Shown piece by piece: positions 2,633-6,105 of a stretch of DNA of 6,105 nt. The notes under the pieces are model-generated. The model saw only the letters and a program-made list of their open reading frames with translations. It had not been told where the DNA came from and made no database searches. Source of the DNA: a virus; IMG/VR virus record IMGVR_UViG_3300020030_000131, positions 1 through 6,105 of that record; one strand, 5' to 3'. The position numbers and the translations under genes were made by a program. How positions within the stretch are numbered: position 1 is the stretch's first letter; each line of letters begins with the position of its first letter.

Positions 2633-2806
2633 GTTATTGGTAACGACTGCAGGAGAGGCCGCGCATTTTTCTATCGTTCTTTATTCAATTGTTTACACCA
2701 TTGTGGCGCGGTGACGCATTTCGCGGTTCGGAGAACCGCCCCGAACGAAGTGAGGGTGCGGCACCGTAGCTTCCCTTTAAATTTTCAATATCATGTCAGA
2801 CGCTAA
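2585..2806 (+). CDS. Doubtful ORF: Arg-rich, very basic 73-aa protein (it would be a J/VP8-like DNA-binding protein if real)
   Basis: ATG-initiated ORF with about 16 Arg in 73 aa. Its T3 codon bias is clearly weaker than in neighbouring genes. It is filled with stable hairpins, contains a terminator-like structure, and overlaps the next ORF by 14 nt. Coding and non-coding readings cannot be separated by eye. Confidence 0.25.
   Translation: MLRARTPSERVREFLKVIGNDCRRGRAFFYRSLFNCLHHCGAVTHFAVRRTAPNEVRVRHRSFPLNFQYHVRR
2593..2670 (+). promoter_or_regulatory. Long imperfect hairpin (about 73 nt) with a GC-rich base, followed immediately by TTTTT. Candidate intrinsic terminator and/or ssDNA structural element.
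   Basis: Seven perfect bp: TGCGCGG 2593-2599 pairs with CCGCGCA 2659-2665. After bulged A2600, 2601-2609 pairs with 2650-2658 (one C.A mismatch, one T.G pair). Then AGTC 2614-2617 pairs with GACT 2645-2648. A T5 run lies at 2666-2670. Confidence 0.5.
2723..2765 (+). promoter_or_regulatory. Cluster of three overlapping, mutually exclusive GC-rich hairpins just upstream of the 63-aa ORF
   Basis: Hairpin A: GCGGTTC 2723-2729 pairs with GAACCGC 2733-2739 (7 bp, loop GGA). Hairpin B: CCGCCCC 2736-2742 pairs with GGG(T)GCGG 2754-2761 (7 bp, one bulge, 11-nt loop). Hairpin C: GGTG 2755-2758 pairs with CACC 2762-2765, part of the 11-nt palindrome GGTGCGGCACC. A/B and B/C share nucleotides. G+C is 46/70 in 2701-2770, against 28/70 in a VP1 sample (461-530). 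Confidence 0.5.
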
Positions 2807-2984
2807 ACAACCTTTCTATAAATCAAAGGCTTTTTGGACGCTTGTTTCATCCATTATCGCCGCGTTGGCTGCTTTTTTTCTCTCTTCGTGTGCTGCACAG
2901 GCAAGAATGCAGCGCAGTGGTGTTCACGTCGACACTGTGCGTGTTGATTATATCATTCGTTCTAATAATTTAACACACTTGTAG
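2793..2984 (+). CDS. Small membrane-targeted protein, putative lipoprotein (63 aa; predicted mature lipopeptide 31 aa)
   Basis: The N-terminus has Lys-containing n-region residues (K5, K10, K12), a hydrophobic core FWTLVSSIIAALAAFF, and then L-S-S-C. That matches the lipobox pattern [LVI][ASTVI][GAS]C, with Cys33 encoded by TGT at 2889-2891. The stop is 1 nt before the VP2 ATG. Third codon positions are moderately T-rich. Confidence 0.6.
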   Translation: MSDAKQPFYKSKAFWTLVSSIIAALAAFFLSSCAAQARMQRSGVHVDTVRVDYIIRSNNLTHL

Positions 2985-2985
2985 T

Positions 2986-4359
2986 ATGCCTGTTCCCGTT
3001 GCTGCTCCCGCTGCCGCATCTTTTGGCCAGGCTCTTGGACAGTCTGCTGCATCTTCCGGCGCTACTGGCCTGATATCTGGTGCACTCGGCCAACTTTTTG
3101 GTGGAATGAACGCTCGTCGCCAATGGCGTTTTCAGCAGAAGCAGATGGCTCTTCAGCAGAAATATGCTTTGGAGCAGATGCAGAGGCAGTCCGAGCTTTC
3201 TTATTCTAATTGGCAAAGGCAGTTTGATTATGAAAATTCATATAATGACCCCTCAAAGGTCTTTGATCGTTATTTGAAGGCTGGCGTAACCCCTGCTGCC
3301 GTTTTAGGCTCTTCGGGTGTTGGAGTGAACGCCACTATGTCCGGCGGTTCTGCGGGCATGCCCTCCGCTTCCGGCCCTTCCGGTGGCGCTCCCGTCAGTC
3401 CTGGTGCTTTTTCCCCTGGTGATCCCGCTGCTATCGCGCAGAATATGGTTGCGCAATCAACGGTAAGCCGTAACGATGCTGCTGCTAATCTTGATAACGC
3501 TCAAGCTCGATCAATTGATGACCAGAATGTTGGTAAACAGATGTACACTCTTATGGCTGAGACTCGTGTAGCCCTAGATCAGGCTGCTGCAAAGCATAAT
3601 TTAGCTGTTTCGGATGTTCTTAAAGTGCAGGAGGCTATTGAGAAAAATGCTCTTTTTATCTCTGATACTACTCTTTTGAGCGCTATTGCCGAGAAGAAGA
3701 GTCAAGCTGCTCTTGTTGATGCACAGGTCCGCCGCTTGAATATCGAGAATGAGCATTTAGGTGCTGTCCTGTCGGCTCAAGCCTTCATGATGAATACTCA
3801 AGGTGCTCTTAATCAAGTTCTTGGCGAGCAGGCTCGCGAAGTCATAGAGTCTTTGCATTTAAATAATCTCGATACTGCTAATGAGATCGCGCGTAATTGG
3901 GAAAAGCGTTTCGACGTTGAAATTCCGAATCCTCAGTATTCAGAAAATCTTAGAAGTAAAAACCCCATCACTCGCGGGAACCCTGGCCCTAAGACTTTCA
4001 AGATTTCGATGTCGCTTAAAGACTTTTACGATAAAACTATTATAAACGAAGCAAACGCATCTGATTTTCTCCCTGAGCAGGCTCGCATTGCACTTCGTAA
4101 TGCAAAGGTTGATCCGTATGTCGAGATTTCGAAGGCCCTTATAGGTGTCGCTGGTAGTCTTGTTGGTGCTGGCATTATACGAGGTGGAATGTCGCGCGCG
4201 GCCGGCACGATTTCCGCCGGCGGCTCTTCTAGTAGTTCTGCAGGCTCTTCGTTGACGACTCGTTATGATTCGAACGGAAATGTTGTTGGTTATGCTAAAA
4301 CTGAGATGAATCGTAGCGGTCATTCGAGTTCGTACAATAATTCTCGTCATTCACGTTGA
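2986..4359 (+). CDS. VP2: DNA pilot / minor capsid protein (Microviridae H/VP2-like), 457 aa
   Basis: Second-largest ORF, downstream of the capsid gene. It has an Ala/Gly-rich hydrophobic N-terminus and a Gln/Arg-rich helical segment (RRQWRFQQKQMALQQKYALEQMQRQSE). The segment NSYNDPSKVFDRYLKAGVTPAAVLG resembles the conserved ..AG(L/V)NP..-type motif I recall in microvirus pilot proteins. A long heptad-like Ala/Gln/Leu-rich centre is followed by a Gly-rich hydrophobic stretch and a Ser-rich tail. Confidence 0.8.
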   Translation: MPVPVAAPAAASFGQALGQSAASSGATGLISGALGQLFGGMNARRQWRFQQKQMALQQKYALEQMQRQSELSYSNWQRQFDYENSYNDPSKVFDRYLKAGVTPAAVLGSSGVGVNATMSGGSAGMPSASGPSGGAPVSPGAFSPGDPAAIAQNMVAQSTVSRNDAAANLDNAQARSIDDQNVGKQMYTLMAETRVALDQAAAKHNLAVSDVLKVQEAIEKNALFISDTTLLSAIAEKKSQAALVDAQVRRLNIENEHLGAVLSAQAFMMNTQGALNQVLGEQAREVIESLHLNNLDTANEIARNWEKRFDVEIPNPQYSENLRSKNPITRGNPGPKTFKISMSLKDFYDKTIINEANASDFLPEQARIALRNAKVDPYVEISKALIGVAGSLVGAGIIRGGMSRAAGTISAGGSSSSSAGSSLTTRYDSNGNVVGYAKTEMNRSGHSSSYNNSRHSR

Positions 4360-4364
4360 TTTTT

Positions 4365-4395
4365 TTTGGAGCTTCATTTTTTATTGTTATATTTG
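4365..4395 (+). promoter_or_regulatory. Bacteroides/Bacteroidota-type promoter: -33 TTTG (4365-4368), 19-nt spacer, -7 TATATTTG (4388-4395, matching TAnnTTTG)
   Basis: Exact match to both published consensus elements for Bacteroides primary-sigma promoters, with spacing in the reported 19-21 nt range. It lies in the 63-nt VP2-to-next-ORF intergenic region, about 28 nt upstream of the ATG at 4423. It is the only intergenic exact TAnnTTTG I found in the window. Confidence 0.6.
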
Positions 4396-4422
4396 CATTG
4401 TCAAACCAATAATCTTATTATT

Positions 4423-4728
4423 ATGAAAAAGCTTCAACAACCTGTAATCGACAAACTGTTACTCGATGTTATAGAGTACGCGTTCGTAGAGTGGCTTGTC
4501 CGTCGAGGAATATTTACTGCCTTTAGGGCGAACTATTGCCGCGTTCCTTCAACTCGAAAAACCTTTCGAGATTGCTTGCGTGATCACATCCGACGTGTTT
4601 ATCGTTCATCTAGCCTTGGCCCCGAGTCTCTCGTCTCCTCTGCTTTTTTATTTATTTCAACTCCTGAGGGTTGCGAATTCTGGACCAAGCACTCCGACGC
4701 TTGGAGGAGTTTTTACAATAAACTTTAA
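4423..4728 (+). CDS. Hypothetical protein (101 aa from ATG 4423; the track's 4366 start is a TTG upstream of the predicted transcription start)
   Basis: ATG is preceded by the AT-rich context ATTATTATGA, shared with the next gene. The C-terminal segment SSAFLFISTPEGCEFWTKHSDAWRSFY resembles an aF.W..TpEG..fW.....W motif that I recall from small phage or bacterial hypothetical proteins but cannot assign to a named family. Confidence 0.6.
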   Translation: MKKLQQPVIDKLLLDVIEYAFVEWLVRRGIFTAFRANYCRVPSTRKTFRDCLRDHIRRVYRSSSLGPESLVSSAFLFISTPEGCEFWTKHSDAWRSFYNKL

Positions 4729-4751: not shown

Positions 4752-5075
4752 ATGACACAGGTTCATATTGTTATTCGCCGCATCAATCCGGCTTTTAAGA
4801 TTGATTTAGTACAGGTAGGCTATATTAAAGATGGGCATTTCGAAATGCTTCATCTTAGTGATCTTGCTCATACGCCTATTTCTGACTATATAGAGCACTC
4901 TAGTATTGCTGCCTCGCCTTATATTGATCATTGTCATATTCCTAGTCTTGCAGCGGCTCTGGTTACCTGCCCTGATTTCTCGATCGATTTTTTCGATAAT
5001 ACGCTCGTTTTTATGTTTAGTACTAATCTGACTCACGATGAAATCACGTCGAAAGAAAAAGGGGAAGGGGACTAA
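4752..5075 (+). CDS. Hypothetical protein (107 aa), His- and Asp-rich, with no recognisable motif
   Basis: ATG in the same ATTATTATGA context. It is the only long ORF in this interval on the coding strand. It ends 45 nt before the strong terminator. Confidence 0.55.
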   Translation: MTQVHIVIRRINPAFKIDLVQVGYIKDGHFEMLHLSDLAHTPISDYIEHSSIAASPYIDHCHIPSLAAALVTCPDFSIDFFDNTLVFMFSTNLTHDEITSKEKGEGD

Positions 5076-5119
5076 AGTAGTCACCCGCCCGCTCGGTGGA
5101 AGAGTCCTCTGACTCGTTG

Positions 5120-5154
5120 GGCCTGCGGGGGAAATCTCTTGCAGGCCTTTTTTT
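5120..5154 (+). terminator. Rho-independent (intrinsic) terminator
   Basis: GGCCTGC 5120-5126 pairs with GCAGGCC 5141-5147. In RNA the stem can extend inward with G-C and G.U pairs (5127-5131 with 5136-5140, loop AAAT). It is followed directly by T7 at 5148-5154. A smaller hairpin, GAGTC 5102-5106 with GACTC 5111-5115, sits immediately upstream. Confidence 0.8.
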
Positions 5155-5179
5155 AAGTGTAGAGTAATGTTTTTAAATT

Positions 5180-5380
5180 ATGGATAATTTCGATTTCAGG
5201 CCTAGATTTTCCCCTACTATCAATGGCATTTCTCATCGCTATTCTATTGGCGCATACCGAGGTCGGAACCGAGTTGTTATCGCTTGGTTTGCCGACGAGA
5301 TCCCTGCGAATGACTATCTTGCTCGTTGTCTTCGTACTAATCCTTATATTAAGTTCGATTGCCTTAAAAGCCTTTTTTAA
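5180..5380 (+). CDS. Hypothetical small protein (66 aa) joined to the replication gene by a stop/start overlap
   Basis: ATG start and T-rich third positions. Its TAA stop (5378-5380) shares the A at 5380 with the Rep ATG (5380-5382), forming TAATG. It is the first ORF after the terminator. Confidence 0.5.
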   Translation: MDNFDFRPRFSPTINGISHRYSIGAYRGRNRVVIAWFADEIPANDYLARCLRTNPYIKFDCLKSLF

Positions 5381-6105
5381 TGGCCTGCTCTTCACCCATA
5401 TGGATACGAAATCGTCGTTACTTCGACAAGAAAAACCCTTGTCGTAACGGTTCTGATGTTGCCAAGTCCGCCTTAGCTCTTCGACCCTGGGACATTGCCC
5501 GCCAGTGGCTGATGGTTCCCTGTGGAAAGTGCGAAGACTGCTTGCGTCGGCAGCGTAATGATTGGTTTGTTCGGCTGGAGCGGGAGCTCGCCTGCTGCAA
5601 GGCTAATAACCAGCAGGCTATTTTTATTACGATAACTATTGCTCCGAGGTATTACAATGAAGCCTTGCTCGACCCCTCTCGATTCATCCGCCGTTTCAAT
5701 GAGCGCTTGCGACATAAACTCGGCCATTCGTTCAAGCATGCCTTTTTCCAGGAGTTCGGCACTCATCCGGAGATGGGAAATGAGCCTCGATTACATTTTC
5801 ATGGCTTTCTGTTTGGCACAAACGTTCTTTATAATACCATTCGCTCTGCCGTTCGAGATCTCGGCTTTGTGTGGCTCGCGAAAGCCACCCATAGACGCGC
5901 TCGCTATTGTGTGAAGTATGTTACTAAACAAATTCAATTTAACCCCGAGGAGATCTCGGATAAATATGTTACTGTAGATGGAAGACTTACACCTTTATCT
6001 TGCCTCCTCCAGCATCGCCGTTATACGCGAAAATTCGTATCTGCTGGCGTTGGTGATTTTCTTGGCTATATGCCTCGTCCTTCTGCTCGTGTTTCGTCGT
6101 GGTCT
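5380..6105 (+). CDS. VP4: Replication initiator protein (rolling-circle HUH endonuclease, VP4-like), N-terminal part. The ORF has no stop within the window and continues at position 1. The last 105 nt duplicate 1..105.
   Basis: My own translation of frame 1 gives an in-frame TAA at 5365-5367 and the first ATG at 5380. The product begins MACSSPIWIRN...WLMVPCGKCEDCLRRQRNDWFVRLE. Motif I is FITITI (5623-5640). The HUH motif is HFH within RLHFHGFLF (5794-5802). The catalytic two-tyrosine motif is YCVKYVTK (5905-5928; compare YxxKYxxK in phiX174 protein A). Confidence 0.92.
   Translation, partial: MACSSPIWIRNRRYFDKKNPCRNGSDVAKSALALRPWDIARQWLMVPCGKCEDCLRRQRNDWFVRLERELACCKANNQQAIFITITIAPRYYNEALLDPSRFIRRFNERLRHKLGHSFKHAFFQEFGTHPEMGNEPRLHFHGFLFGTNVLYNTIRSAVRDLGFVWLAKATHRRARYCVKYVTKQIQFNPEEISDKYVTVDGRLTPLSCLLQHRRYTRKFVSAGVGDFLGYMPRPSARVSSWS
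6001..6105. repeat. Terminal redundancy, copy 2 (identical to 1..105)
   Basis: Identical over all 105 nt by direct comparison. Confidence 0.95.

Follow-up and report, generated by a model that had tools for sequence, protein, structure and literature searches.

A small, conserved lipoprotein gene in gut microviruses as a candidate effector of host lysis or superinfection exclusion

Introduction

How microviruses outside the phiX174 group leave their host is a long-standing gap in the biology of these phages (PMC7062461, PMC3394797), and so is the way in which they protect the cells that they have infected. Genomes of the gokushovirus type have no known lysis gene, and a few have acquired M15 peptidases (PMC7062461, PMC3394797). 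The window analysed here, which is the whole 6105-nt stretch of DNA under study, raises the question in a concrete form, as immediately upstream of its pilot gene lies a 63-codon ORF with the signal of a bacterial lipoprotein. Here, we ask whether this ORF is a real gene, what kind of protein it would make, how it is distributed among microviruses and their hosts, and which of several envelope functions fits it best.

The genome and the locus

The window spans the complete, circular genome of a gokushovirus-like faecal microvirus, with every gene on the + strand, and its closest GenBank records are Microviridae from the faeces of pigs and other mammals, with 75-82% identity across parts of the genome. 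The replication gene Rep (5380-6105, continuing at 1-450 across the ends; PF23343) is followed by the capsid gene VP1 (454-2253; PF02305, phrog_514) and by p98, which encodes an acidic protein of 98 aa (2266-2562). Beyond p98, fold prediction places a long, imperfect, GC-rich hairpin at 2577-2688, with an inner stem at approximately 2592-2666 and a T-run after it. The small lipoprotein precursor gene comes next (2793-2984, 63 codons and a TAG), called from the ORF list, its homologues and dN/dS, and is succeeded by the gene for the DNA pilot protein VP2 (2986-4359; phrog_8689) and by two ORFs without assigned function (4366-4728 and 4752-5075).

The first-pass annotation had set the ORF between a structured region and the pilot gene, a placement that holds to the nucleotide: the TAG of the lipoprotein gene is followed by a single T and then by the ATG of VP2 at 2986, so that VP2 starts 1 nt past the stop. 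This adjacency is identical in all relatives of the window's clade, and the two genes are probably co-transcribed. As modelled, the hairpin looks like a terminator or attenuator; an Rfam search gave no relevant match, and a sigma-70 promoter scan was uninformative for a Bacteroidales host. No gene of the window has a Shine-Dalgarno motif, the leaders being A/T-rich, as would be expected for a phage of Bacteroidota.

Anatomy of the predicted lipoprotein

The ORF runs from ATG to TAG and encodes a 63-aa protein, MSDAKQPFYKSKAFWTLVSSIIAALAAFFLSSC followed by AAQARMQRSGVHVDTVRVDYIIRSNNLTHL, whose parts were also recognized in the first-pass annotation. The basic n-region comprises residues 1-12 (2793-2828, + strand) and carries lysines at positions 5, 10 and 12, the last being invariant or nearly so in alignments. 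The hydrophobic core that follows, initially put at about 16 residues, extends over 18, from A13 to L30 (AFWTLVSSIIAALAAFFL; 2829-2882); its conserved residues are F14, W15, T16, L17, A23, A24, L25, A27 and F29, and small residues are spaced i, i+4, i+8. The core gives way to the lipobox L30-S31-S32-C33 (2880-2891), whose Cys33 is predicted to be lipidated and to become the mature N-terminus. If cut before Cys33, the mature lipopeptide would have 31 residues including the Cys (CAAQARMQRSGVHVDTVRVDYIIRSNNLTHL; 2889-2981), as originally proposed, with a net charge of approximately +2, no acidic residue directly past the Cys, no Pro and no second Cys. Its conserved core, G43-S57 (GVHVDTVRVDYIIRS; 2919-2963), has a beta-strand-like alternation, in which G43, H45, D47 and V49 are invariant among peptides of the window's type and D47 is nearly invariant across all types described below.

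These features agree with a rule of the PROSITE PS51257 type, namely a basic n-region, an uncharged h-region and a lipobox of the form [LVI..][ASTV..][GAS]-C, here LSSC, with the Cys inside the 15-35 range, and the match is the sole one among + strand ATG ORFs of at least 35 aa in the window. The same rule produced four evidently spurious matches to alternative-frame ORFs in 13 related genomes, approximately 0.3 per genome, and because the T-rich + strand gives many hydrophobic ORFs, the lipobox pattern alone is weak evidence. The confident part of the AF2 model is a helix at residues 12-42, and for the mature part the model gives neither a reliable fold nor an amphipathic helix.

A genuine gene under strong purifying selection

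Among 5.8 billion proteins, a word-indexed search returned 322 homologues, one of which bears the automated name 'MAG TPA: lipoprotein [Microviridae sp.]', and tblastn located the gene in 40 GenBank microviruses, where it is often unannotated. The first-pass annotation had looked to relatives for a small lipobox ORF at this position, and there it is found: the gene is intact in approximately 170 related microvirus genomes, is nowhere absent or interrupted among close relatives, and is present in every complete genome among 42 further ones picked by VP1 similarity alone. Seeming losses or pseudogenes in four genomes (L099, L093, L127 and L118) were rejected, their contigs ending inside the region.

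In a set of 81 distinct sequences of 63 codons, synonymous sites are saturated (pS 0.63) and pN is 0.08, for a dN/dS of 0.06, and the entropy at the three codon positions is 0.26, 0.14 and 1.10. The ratio is 0.046 in the hydrophobic core (pS 0.56) and 0.028 in the core of the mature peptide, taken as residues 41-59. When copies from the same genomes are compared with the window, the lipoprotein is 80-95% identical, VP1 approximately 70% and VP2 often approximately 50%. Every homologue, however divergent, keeps Cys33 and a Ser, Ala or Gly at -1, and the Cys is invariant at all of the approximately 170 loci. Judged by this record the ORF is a genuine gene, its conservation and the dN/dS of 0.06 excluding a chance ORF, and a secreted, lipid-anchored mini-protein is well supported as its product.

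Mis-called gene models in databases

The length of the protein needs some care, as about half of the family's database entries are 100 aa long, with 37 extra N-terminal residues. We rejected this longer form (MLRARTPS...), whose ATG (window position 2585) sits inside the conserved GC-rich hairpin and whose spacer is not kept in frame: from hairpin to lipoprotein ATG the spacing in relatives is 104-110 nt, often out of frame, and is further broken by insertions of approximately 97 nt (the window being among these) or approximately 190 nt.

About 30 clusters carry longer proteins still, of 172-223 aa, with an unconserved middle rich in Ser, Thr, Pro and Leu. It is the shadow, in the +1 frame, of gene X, a real gene lying downstream whose own frame is significantly stop-free, and the lipoprotein frame across X would be open by chance with a P of 0.27-0.53 per lineage. 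The conserved basic end of the long forms (RRGGRRGKPRPK.K.IPLGGSHL) is truly coding, as judged by synonymous differences between L088 and L090, and in L141 it is a separate 28-aa ORF with its own ATG in a different frame; we take this tail to resemble J, the small DNA-binding protein of phiX174 and G4. A u-spanin-like architecture for the forms of approximately 200 aa (lipobox, linker, hydrophobic segment, basic tail) was thus rejected in favour of read-through across X into a J-like gene. As the long and the 100-aa calls are both artefactual, the short 63-aa form is the functional unit, the practical upshot being that half of the family's database entries are wrong, as proteins of 100 or approximately 200 aa.

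Exchangeable peptides on a conserved signal

Searched exhaustively by profile, 1.84 billion representative proteins yielded a small family of 69 clusters, limited to microviruses from faeces and to Alistipes prophages of microviruses, and all inspectable contexts are microviruses or microvirus prophages; a second homology search, begun from the most divergent member, gave two matches. The signal peptide (..SKKFWTLVAAIVAAL.AFF..[SAG]C) is the best-conserved module and holds six of the eight best-conserved columns. Behind it stand several types of mature peptide, namely type T1, to which the window belongs (G-V-H-I-D-T-V-R-V-D-Y-I-I-R-S), type T3 (HYVVQSASS.KSGDTTRTTITYEQIGNFKRP) and at least three rarer types, all of which have in common an Asp-Thr/Ser followed by beta-strand-like alternation. 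In two clusters, P0167 and P0181, a T1 mature peptide is found behind an unrelated signal peptide with the Cys kept, which, we argue, makes the Cys-anchored peptide an effector in its own right.

The position of the gene varies with lineage. Within the window's clade (VP1 identity of at least 46%) it is always between p98 and VP2, and lineages with a VP1 identity of 24-29% have T1 and T3 homologues (50-70% identity) between VP2 and Rep. The gene has evidently moved between very different microviruses, and the occurrence of T1 and T3 each in lineages with a VP1 identity of approximately 25%, at different genome positions, suggests that its function is portable and capsid-independent. The one well-resolved recombination breakpoint (L191 versus L049) falls exactly between the conserved hairpin and the ATG of the lipoprotein. 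A sister clade of five genomes (VP1 identity of approximately 40%) has 100-140 nt between its p98-like gene and VP2, and these genomes have neither a lipobox ORF nor a protein in which a TM segment is credible; being missing from this clade, the gene cannot be the ancestral or universal lysis device of the group.

We also considered whether the peptide is tied to a partner in the virion. The C-terminal subtype of the lipoprotein is perfectly linked to the type of VP2 N-terminus, a linkage explained by physical adjacency and not taken as a sign of functional coupling. For the capsid loops no co-variation was found beyond population structure: the nearest neighbour by VP1 shares the peptide type in 18 of 24 cases, for variable and conserved columns alike, and the nearest neighbour by Rep, p98 or VP2 does so in 22 of 24, VP1 being the gene least associated with peptide type.

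When the window protein and 22 diverse members were searched against Pfam, NCBIfam, PHROG, PADLOC and PDB sequences, all matches were weak and of the signal-peptide type, to LptM, YgdI/YgdR, EexN, the N-termini of mycoplasma lipoproteins and the PADLOC candidate family PDC-M02A, the last with E-values of 0.004-0.03 and 12-14 bits. None matched Lysis_col, entericidin, Rz1, Llp or Cor, and PF02402 was matched neither by the 22 diverse members at E-values up to 10 nor by the window protein. The gene thus belongs to no described family and any resemblance is architectural only; our literature search found no paper on a microvirus lipoprotein.

Hosts and prophages

A scan of one genome per prokaryotic species found the gene at two loci, both in Alistipes and both integrated microviruses with the order lipoprotein-X-Rep-VP1-p-VP2. 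One of these prophages, at about 131.4-136.5 kb of NZ_JAGYXY010000001.1, comes from the isolate A. montrealensis kh20, where it sits on a scaffold of 839 kb between flanks with RelA/SpoT, HIT and HTH genes. The HIT/HTH left flank recurs in IMG/VR contigs from two different microvirus lineages, and in these too the prophage begins with the lipoprotein gene. In the Alistipes prophages the lipoprotein gene stands directly past the host junction in the same orientation. In GC content the window (45%) agrees with the prophages (44%) and not with the host flanks (52-53%). No integrated copy from the window's own clade was found. Together these loci support a Bacteroidales (Alistipes) host range for the gene's carriers, in keeping with the Bacteroides-type host that had been assumed.

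Other candidates for lysis in the genome

Profile searches of the window proteins found no peptidase, endolysin, holin or E-like gene, in agreement with the first reading of the genome, and the lipoprotein is the only membrane-targeted product with support. A lysis gene could also be overprinted on another, as protein E is in phiX174, and hydrophobic + strand ORFs in alternative frames (2183-2578, 2-337, 1202-1633 and 5163-5447) are open in 83-100% of relatives. In synonymous-codon shuffles the +1 frames are expected to be stop-free (P = 0.78 over p98, for example). The open frames match composition, with no avoidance of stops beyond it, and give no evidence of an overprinted E-like lysis gene, which is possible but unsupported.

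Possible functions

The reading that we prefer, and hold tentatively at somewhat less than an even chance, is that the peptide is the phage's self-contained egress (lysis) effector. The precursor would insert into the inner membrane via its signal peptide, after which, following the universal lipoprotein pathway, Cys33 would be acylated and signal peptidase II would cleave. The result would be a mildly basic peptide of approximately 30 residues tethered to the periplasm-facing leaflet, with no acidic surface-export signal past the Cys, whose conserved D-T-V-R-V-D-Y-I-I segment is beta-strand-like and could dock onto a host envelope protein. With its gene behind an attenuating hairpin, such a lipopeptide 'protein antibiotic' would be made sparingly, alongside the pilot protein, and may damage the Bacteroidales envelope from within the periplasm. 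One route would be permeabilization in the manner of colicin release lipoproteins, perhaps with help from the unusually well-conserved signal peptide, which would stay behind in the inner membrane; the other would be the blockage or mis-activation of a step in wall or outer-membrane biogenesis that is exposed to the periplasm. No other phage protein would be needed, which would explain the movement of the gene between lineages that share only a host.

Several observations favour this egress reading: the strong purifying selection on a gene kept intact in so many genomes; the fact that nothing else in the genome is supported as membrane-targeted and that peptidase, holin and E-like genes are all lacking, in a group whose gokushovirus-like genomes have no known lysis gene (PMC7062461, PMC3394797); the likeness to colicin release proteins in size, in position behind a terminator-like hairpin and in having a conserved signal peptide; and a peptide type that is not co-inherited with the capsid beyond what is seen for other genes. 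Others weaken it, as there is no homology to Lysis_col or to any lysis family, AF2 gives no confident fold for the mature part, and the place of the gene as first in the Alistipes prophages is typical of genes useful to a lysogen. Furthermore, the empty slot of the sister clade, whose members have no membrane protein either, implies that another lysis mechanism is already present in the group, and makes the lipoprotein look like an add-on. We know of no lipoprotein-type phage lysis protein. The fullest form of the egress reading, a first lipoprotein-type single-gene phage lysis protein that acts in the periplasm, has at least two exchangeable specificities (T1 and T3) and uses its signal peptide a second time as an inner-membrane effector, is possible and, in our view, less likely than not.

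A second reading, which we regard as a real possibility without thinking it probable, is that the lipoprotein serves superinfection exclusion and the protection of progeny, by the logic of Llp, Rtp45 and Cor. Here, the lipopeptide would dock by beta-strand augmentation on the periplasmic face of an outer-membrane protein or other entry factor, freezing the entry protein so that neither adsorption nor DNA delivery could proceed, and infected or lysogenic cells, as well as debris, would stop consuming phage. A class of small phage lipoproteins that work in the periplasm and jam FhuA or LptDE is already established (PMC9586334, PMC12685063), and carriage of a gokushovirus gives superinfection immunity (PMC7062461). 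Exclusion would also suit the patchy, accessory distribution of the gene with its lack in the sister clade, the discrete mature types on a constant signal peptide, and the leading place in the Alistipes prophages. The gene adjoins the pilot gene, and the perfect linkage of its tail subtype to the VP2 N-terminus would speak for exclusion too, but is accounted for by adjacency. However, with a mass of 3.4 kDa the mature peptide is only half as large as Llp or Rtp45 (6-7 kDa) and has no sequence similarity to them or to Cor, its type shows no excess association with the variable capsid loops, and the lipoprotein is better conserved than either capsid or pilot. That one type serves lineages with a VP1 identity of approximately 25% would be odd for a blocker of a single receptor. 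Egress and exclusion are thus best treated as nearly balanced branches of a hypothesis, between which sequence cannot choose.

It is unlikely, in our estimation, that the peptide has some other envelope role, such as neutralizing a surface or periplasmic host defence, altering the production of capsule or OMVs, or blocking TonB-dependent uptake. The portable, host-specific and diversified peptide types would fit roles of this kind, as would the PDC-M02A matches, but these are weak, at 12-14 bits, and nothing is specific for any one of the roles. On the last of these roles, the D-T-V-R-V / G-D-T-x-x-T motif has a faint likeness to a TonB box. Less probable again is a helper in outer-membrane disruption, a last, spanin- or disruptin-like step of lysis following the breach of the wall by a separate core mechanism. 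An accessory that improves lysis would fit both the absence from the sister clade and the strict retention wherever the gene is present, and the predicted periplasm-facing anchor and mildly cationic peptide would suit it; against it, the protein has no i-spanin partner, no C-terminal TMD (the long forms being read-through), no Pro-rich stretch or Cys of the Rz1 type and no amphipathic helix. Finally, a plain type II TM anchor that acts via its helix like phiX174 E, for which the long (18-residue), highly conserved hydrophobic segment with its face of small residues and the AF2 helix to residue 42 might speak, is very improbable in view of the Cys and small -1 residue that are invariant across types, even with a replaced signal peptide (P0167, P0181), and a chance ORF is excluded by the dN/dS.

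Whichever branch holds, the gene is the candidate that best lends itself to testing how these phages burst or shield the host: it is short enough to synthesize, conserved and portable, and there are two prophage-bearing hosts, one of them a cultured Alistipes isolate. If lysis is its function, a lipoprotein lysis effector would be new, and if it lyses as a single gene, it would supply the missing lysis function of a large gokushovirus-like group of the gut and single out a step in the Bacteroidales envelope as a new drug target. If exclusion is its function, no smaller exclusion lipoprotein would be known, nor any earlier one from an ssDNA phage. In both cases a vulnerable envelope component of abundant gut Bacteroidales would be named.

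Comparison with known systems

The closest architectural parallel is with the colicin lysis lipoproteins, which act by quasi-lysis through activation of the outer-membrane phospholipase A. The first-pass annotation had drawn this parallel and a further one with o-spanins; the likeness in architecture stands and kinship does not, given that no profile matched and that there is neither an i-spanin nor a Pro- or Cys-rich domain. The BRP precursor has 47 aa, of which 19 form the signal peptide and 28 the mature protein (PMC2896534), and the viral protein is similarly a tiny precursor with a mature peptide of approximately 30 residues, here 31. The ColE7 lysis gene follows the T1 terminator (PMC2896534), and the viral gene sits just downstream of a terminator-like hairpin, so that its product too would be made at a low level. 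The stable BRP signal peptide is, according to references cited in PMC2896534, functional and itself toxic; in the viral protein the signal peptide likewise seems important in its own right, and the whole small protein is highly conserved. The two differ in that they have no sequence similarity, and in that one is a viral gene of Bacteroidales and the other part of a colicin operon of Enterobacteriaceae.

Phage lipoproteins of the Llp, Cor and Rtp45 class act from the periplasm by jamming FhuA or LptDE, and Rtp45 forms a beta-sheet with LptD (PMC9586334, PMC12685063). Like Llp of T5, Rtp45 and Cor, the protein described here is a small periplasm-facing phage lipoprotein whose gene lies beside that of a host-entry protein, it occurs in lytic and temperate phages, and it has a short beta-strand available for docking. 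Unlike them it is half the size and dissimilar in sequence, shows no excess co-variation with the capsid and is common to very different capsid lineages.

The spanins, both the o-spanin Rz1 and the u-spanin gp11 of phage T1, resemble it in carrying a small lipoprotein signal and in coming from phages of diderm hosts. In contrast to a two-component o-spanin, the gene has p98 and VP2 as its neighbours, with no i-spanin partner and no endolysin/holin cassette, and the mature domain in the window is without the Pro-rich stretch or periplasmic Cys of the Rz1 type; in contrast to T1 gp11 there is no C-terminal TMD, the protein ending 30 residues past the Cys. With protein E of phiX174 it has in common the setting of a minimal phage genome, small size, membrane targeting, a hydrophobic helix that is conserved, and the lack of an enzyme domain. 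Unlike E, the gene occupies an intergenic slot of its own and is not overprinted, encodes a lipobox and an exported effector peptide, is far more conserved and is horizontally exchanged. Set beside these systems, it is a new protein family that brings a known kind of device, the small phage lipoprotein, to a virus group without a prior example.

Structured elements around the lipoprotein gene

Between the gene for p98, an acidic 98-aa protein, and the small lipoprotein gene (2793-2984) lies a long, GC-rich imperfect hairpin (2577-2688, with an inner stem at about 2592-2666), whose DNA sequence all relatives conserve. The stem is followed on its 3' side by TTTTTCT..TTCTTT, and by appearance the structure could be a terminator or attenuator of the leaky kind, or alternatively a complementary-strand origin. 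A recombination breakpoint falls at this hairpin (locus L191 versus L049), and two further loci, L010 and L068, carry local duplications at the same site. An additional GC-rich segment of ~80-97 nt with its own hairpin (CCATTGTGGCG.GGTGACGCATTTCGCGGTTCGGAGAACCGCCCCGAACGAAGTGAGGGTGCGGCACCGTAGCTTCCC; about 2698-2780 in the window) is missing from most relatives, being present once in ~14 loci and twice in L008, L019, L033 and L077. A small mobile element, or one amplified by slippage, is a possible explanation for this segment.

The main transcription unit probably ends at a second, strong terminator-like hairpin (5119-5148), composed of a 13-bp stem with 8 GC pairs and a subsequent T-run, which is positioned between the last small ORF (ending at 5075) and the replication gene Rep (starting at 5380).

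Variable and probably spurious reading frames

The two ORFs between the pilot protein gene VP2 and Rep, p120 (4366-4728) and p107 (4752-5075), could not be assigned to a family. They are among the most variable genes, and detectable homologues are missing from most genomes of the same clade that encode the T3 type of lipoprotein mature peptide. Long hydrophobic ORFs also occur on the + strand, overlapping real genes in their +1 frame (2-337, 1202-1633, 2183-2578 and 5163-5447), and were considered as overprinted genes; they are open in 83-100% of relatives, but as this openness matches the expectation from composition, spurious gene calls are a likelier reading than overprinting. Separately, a 10.5-kb IMG/VR contig (L149) carries the whole microvirus gene set twice in non-identical copies, with two lipoprotein genes among them; such a contig represents a heterodimeric concatemer or else a chimera of the assembly.

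Integrated relatives in Alistipes and a small basic peptide

An integrated microvirus prophage is found in Alistipes montrealensis kh20 (L090, NZ_JAGYXY010000001.1, about 7900-13100), and further integrated Alistipes prophages are represented by L091, L144, L150, L195 and L210. At least two distinct microvirus lineages in Alistipes share their neighbouring host genes, HIT and HTH_3, which suggests a common attachment site.

Immediately 5' of Rep, the Alistipes-prophage lineage encodes a short, basic peptide that is conserved, RRGGRRGKPRPK.K.IPLGGSHL (L088, 5250-5320; L090, 8517-8585; L141, about 1020-1108), which in L141 forms a separate 28-aa ORF, MSRFKRRRKKSKPTRPHTQVFSVGGKHL. In many genomes the lipoprotein and this peptide share a frame with no intervening stop, giving rise to database gene calls of ~200 aa. 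The basic peptide resembles J, the DNA-packaging protein of phiX174 and G4.
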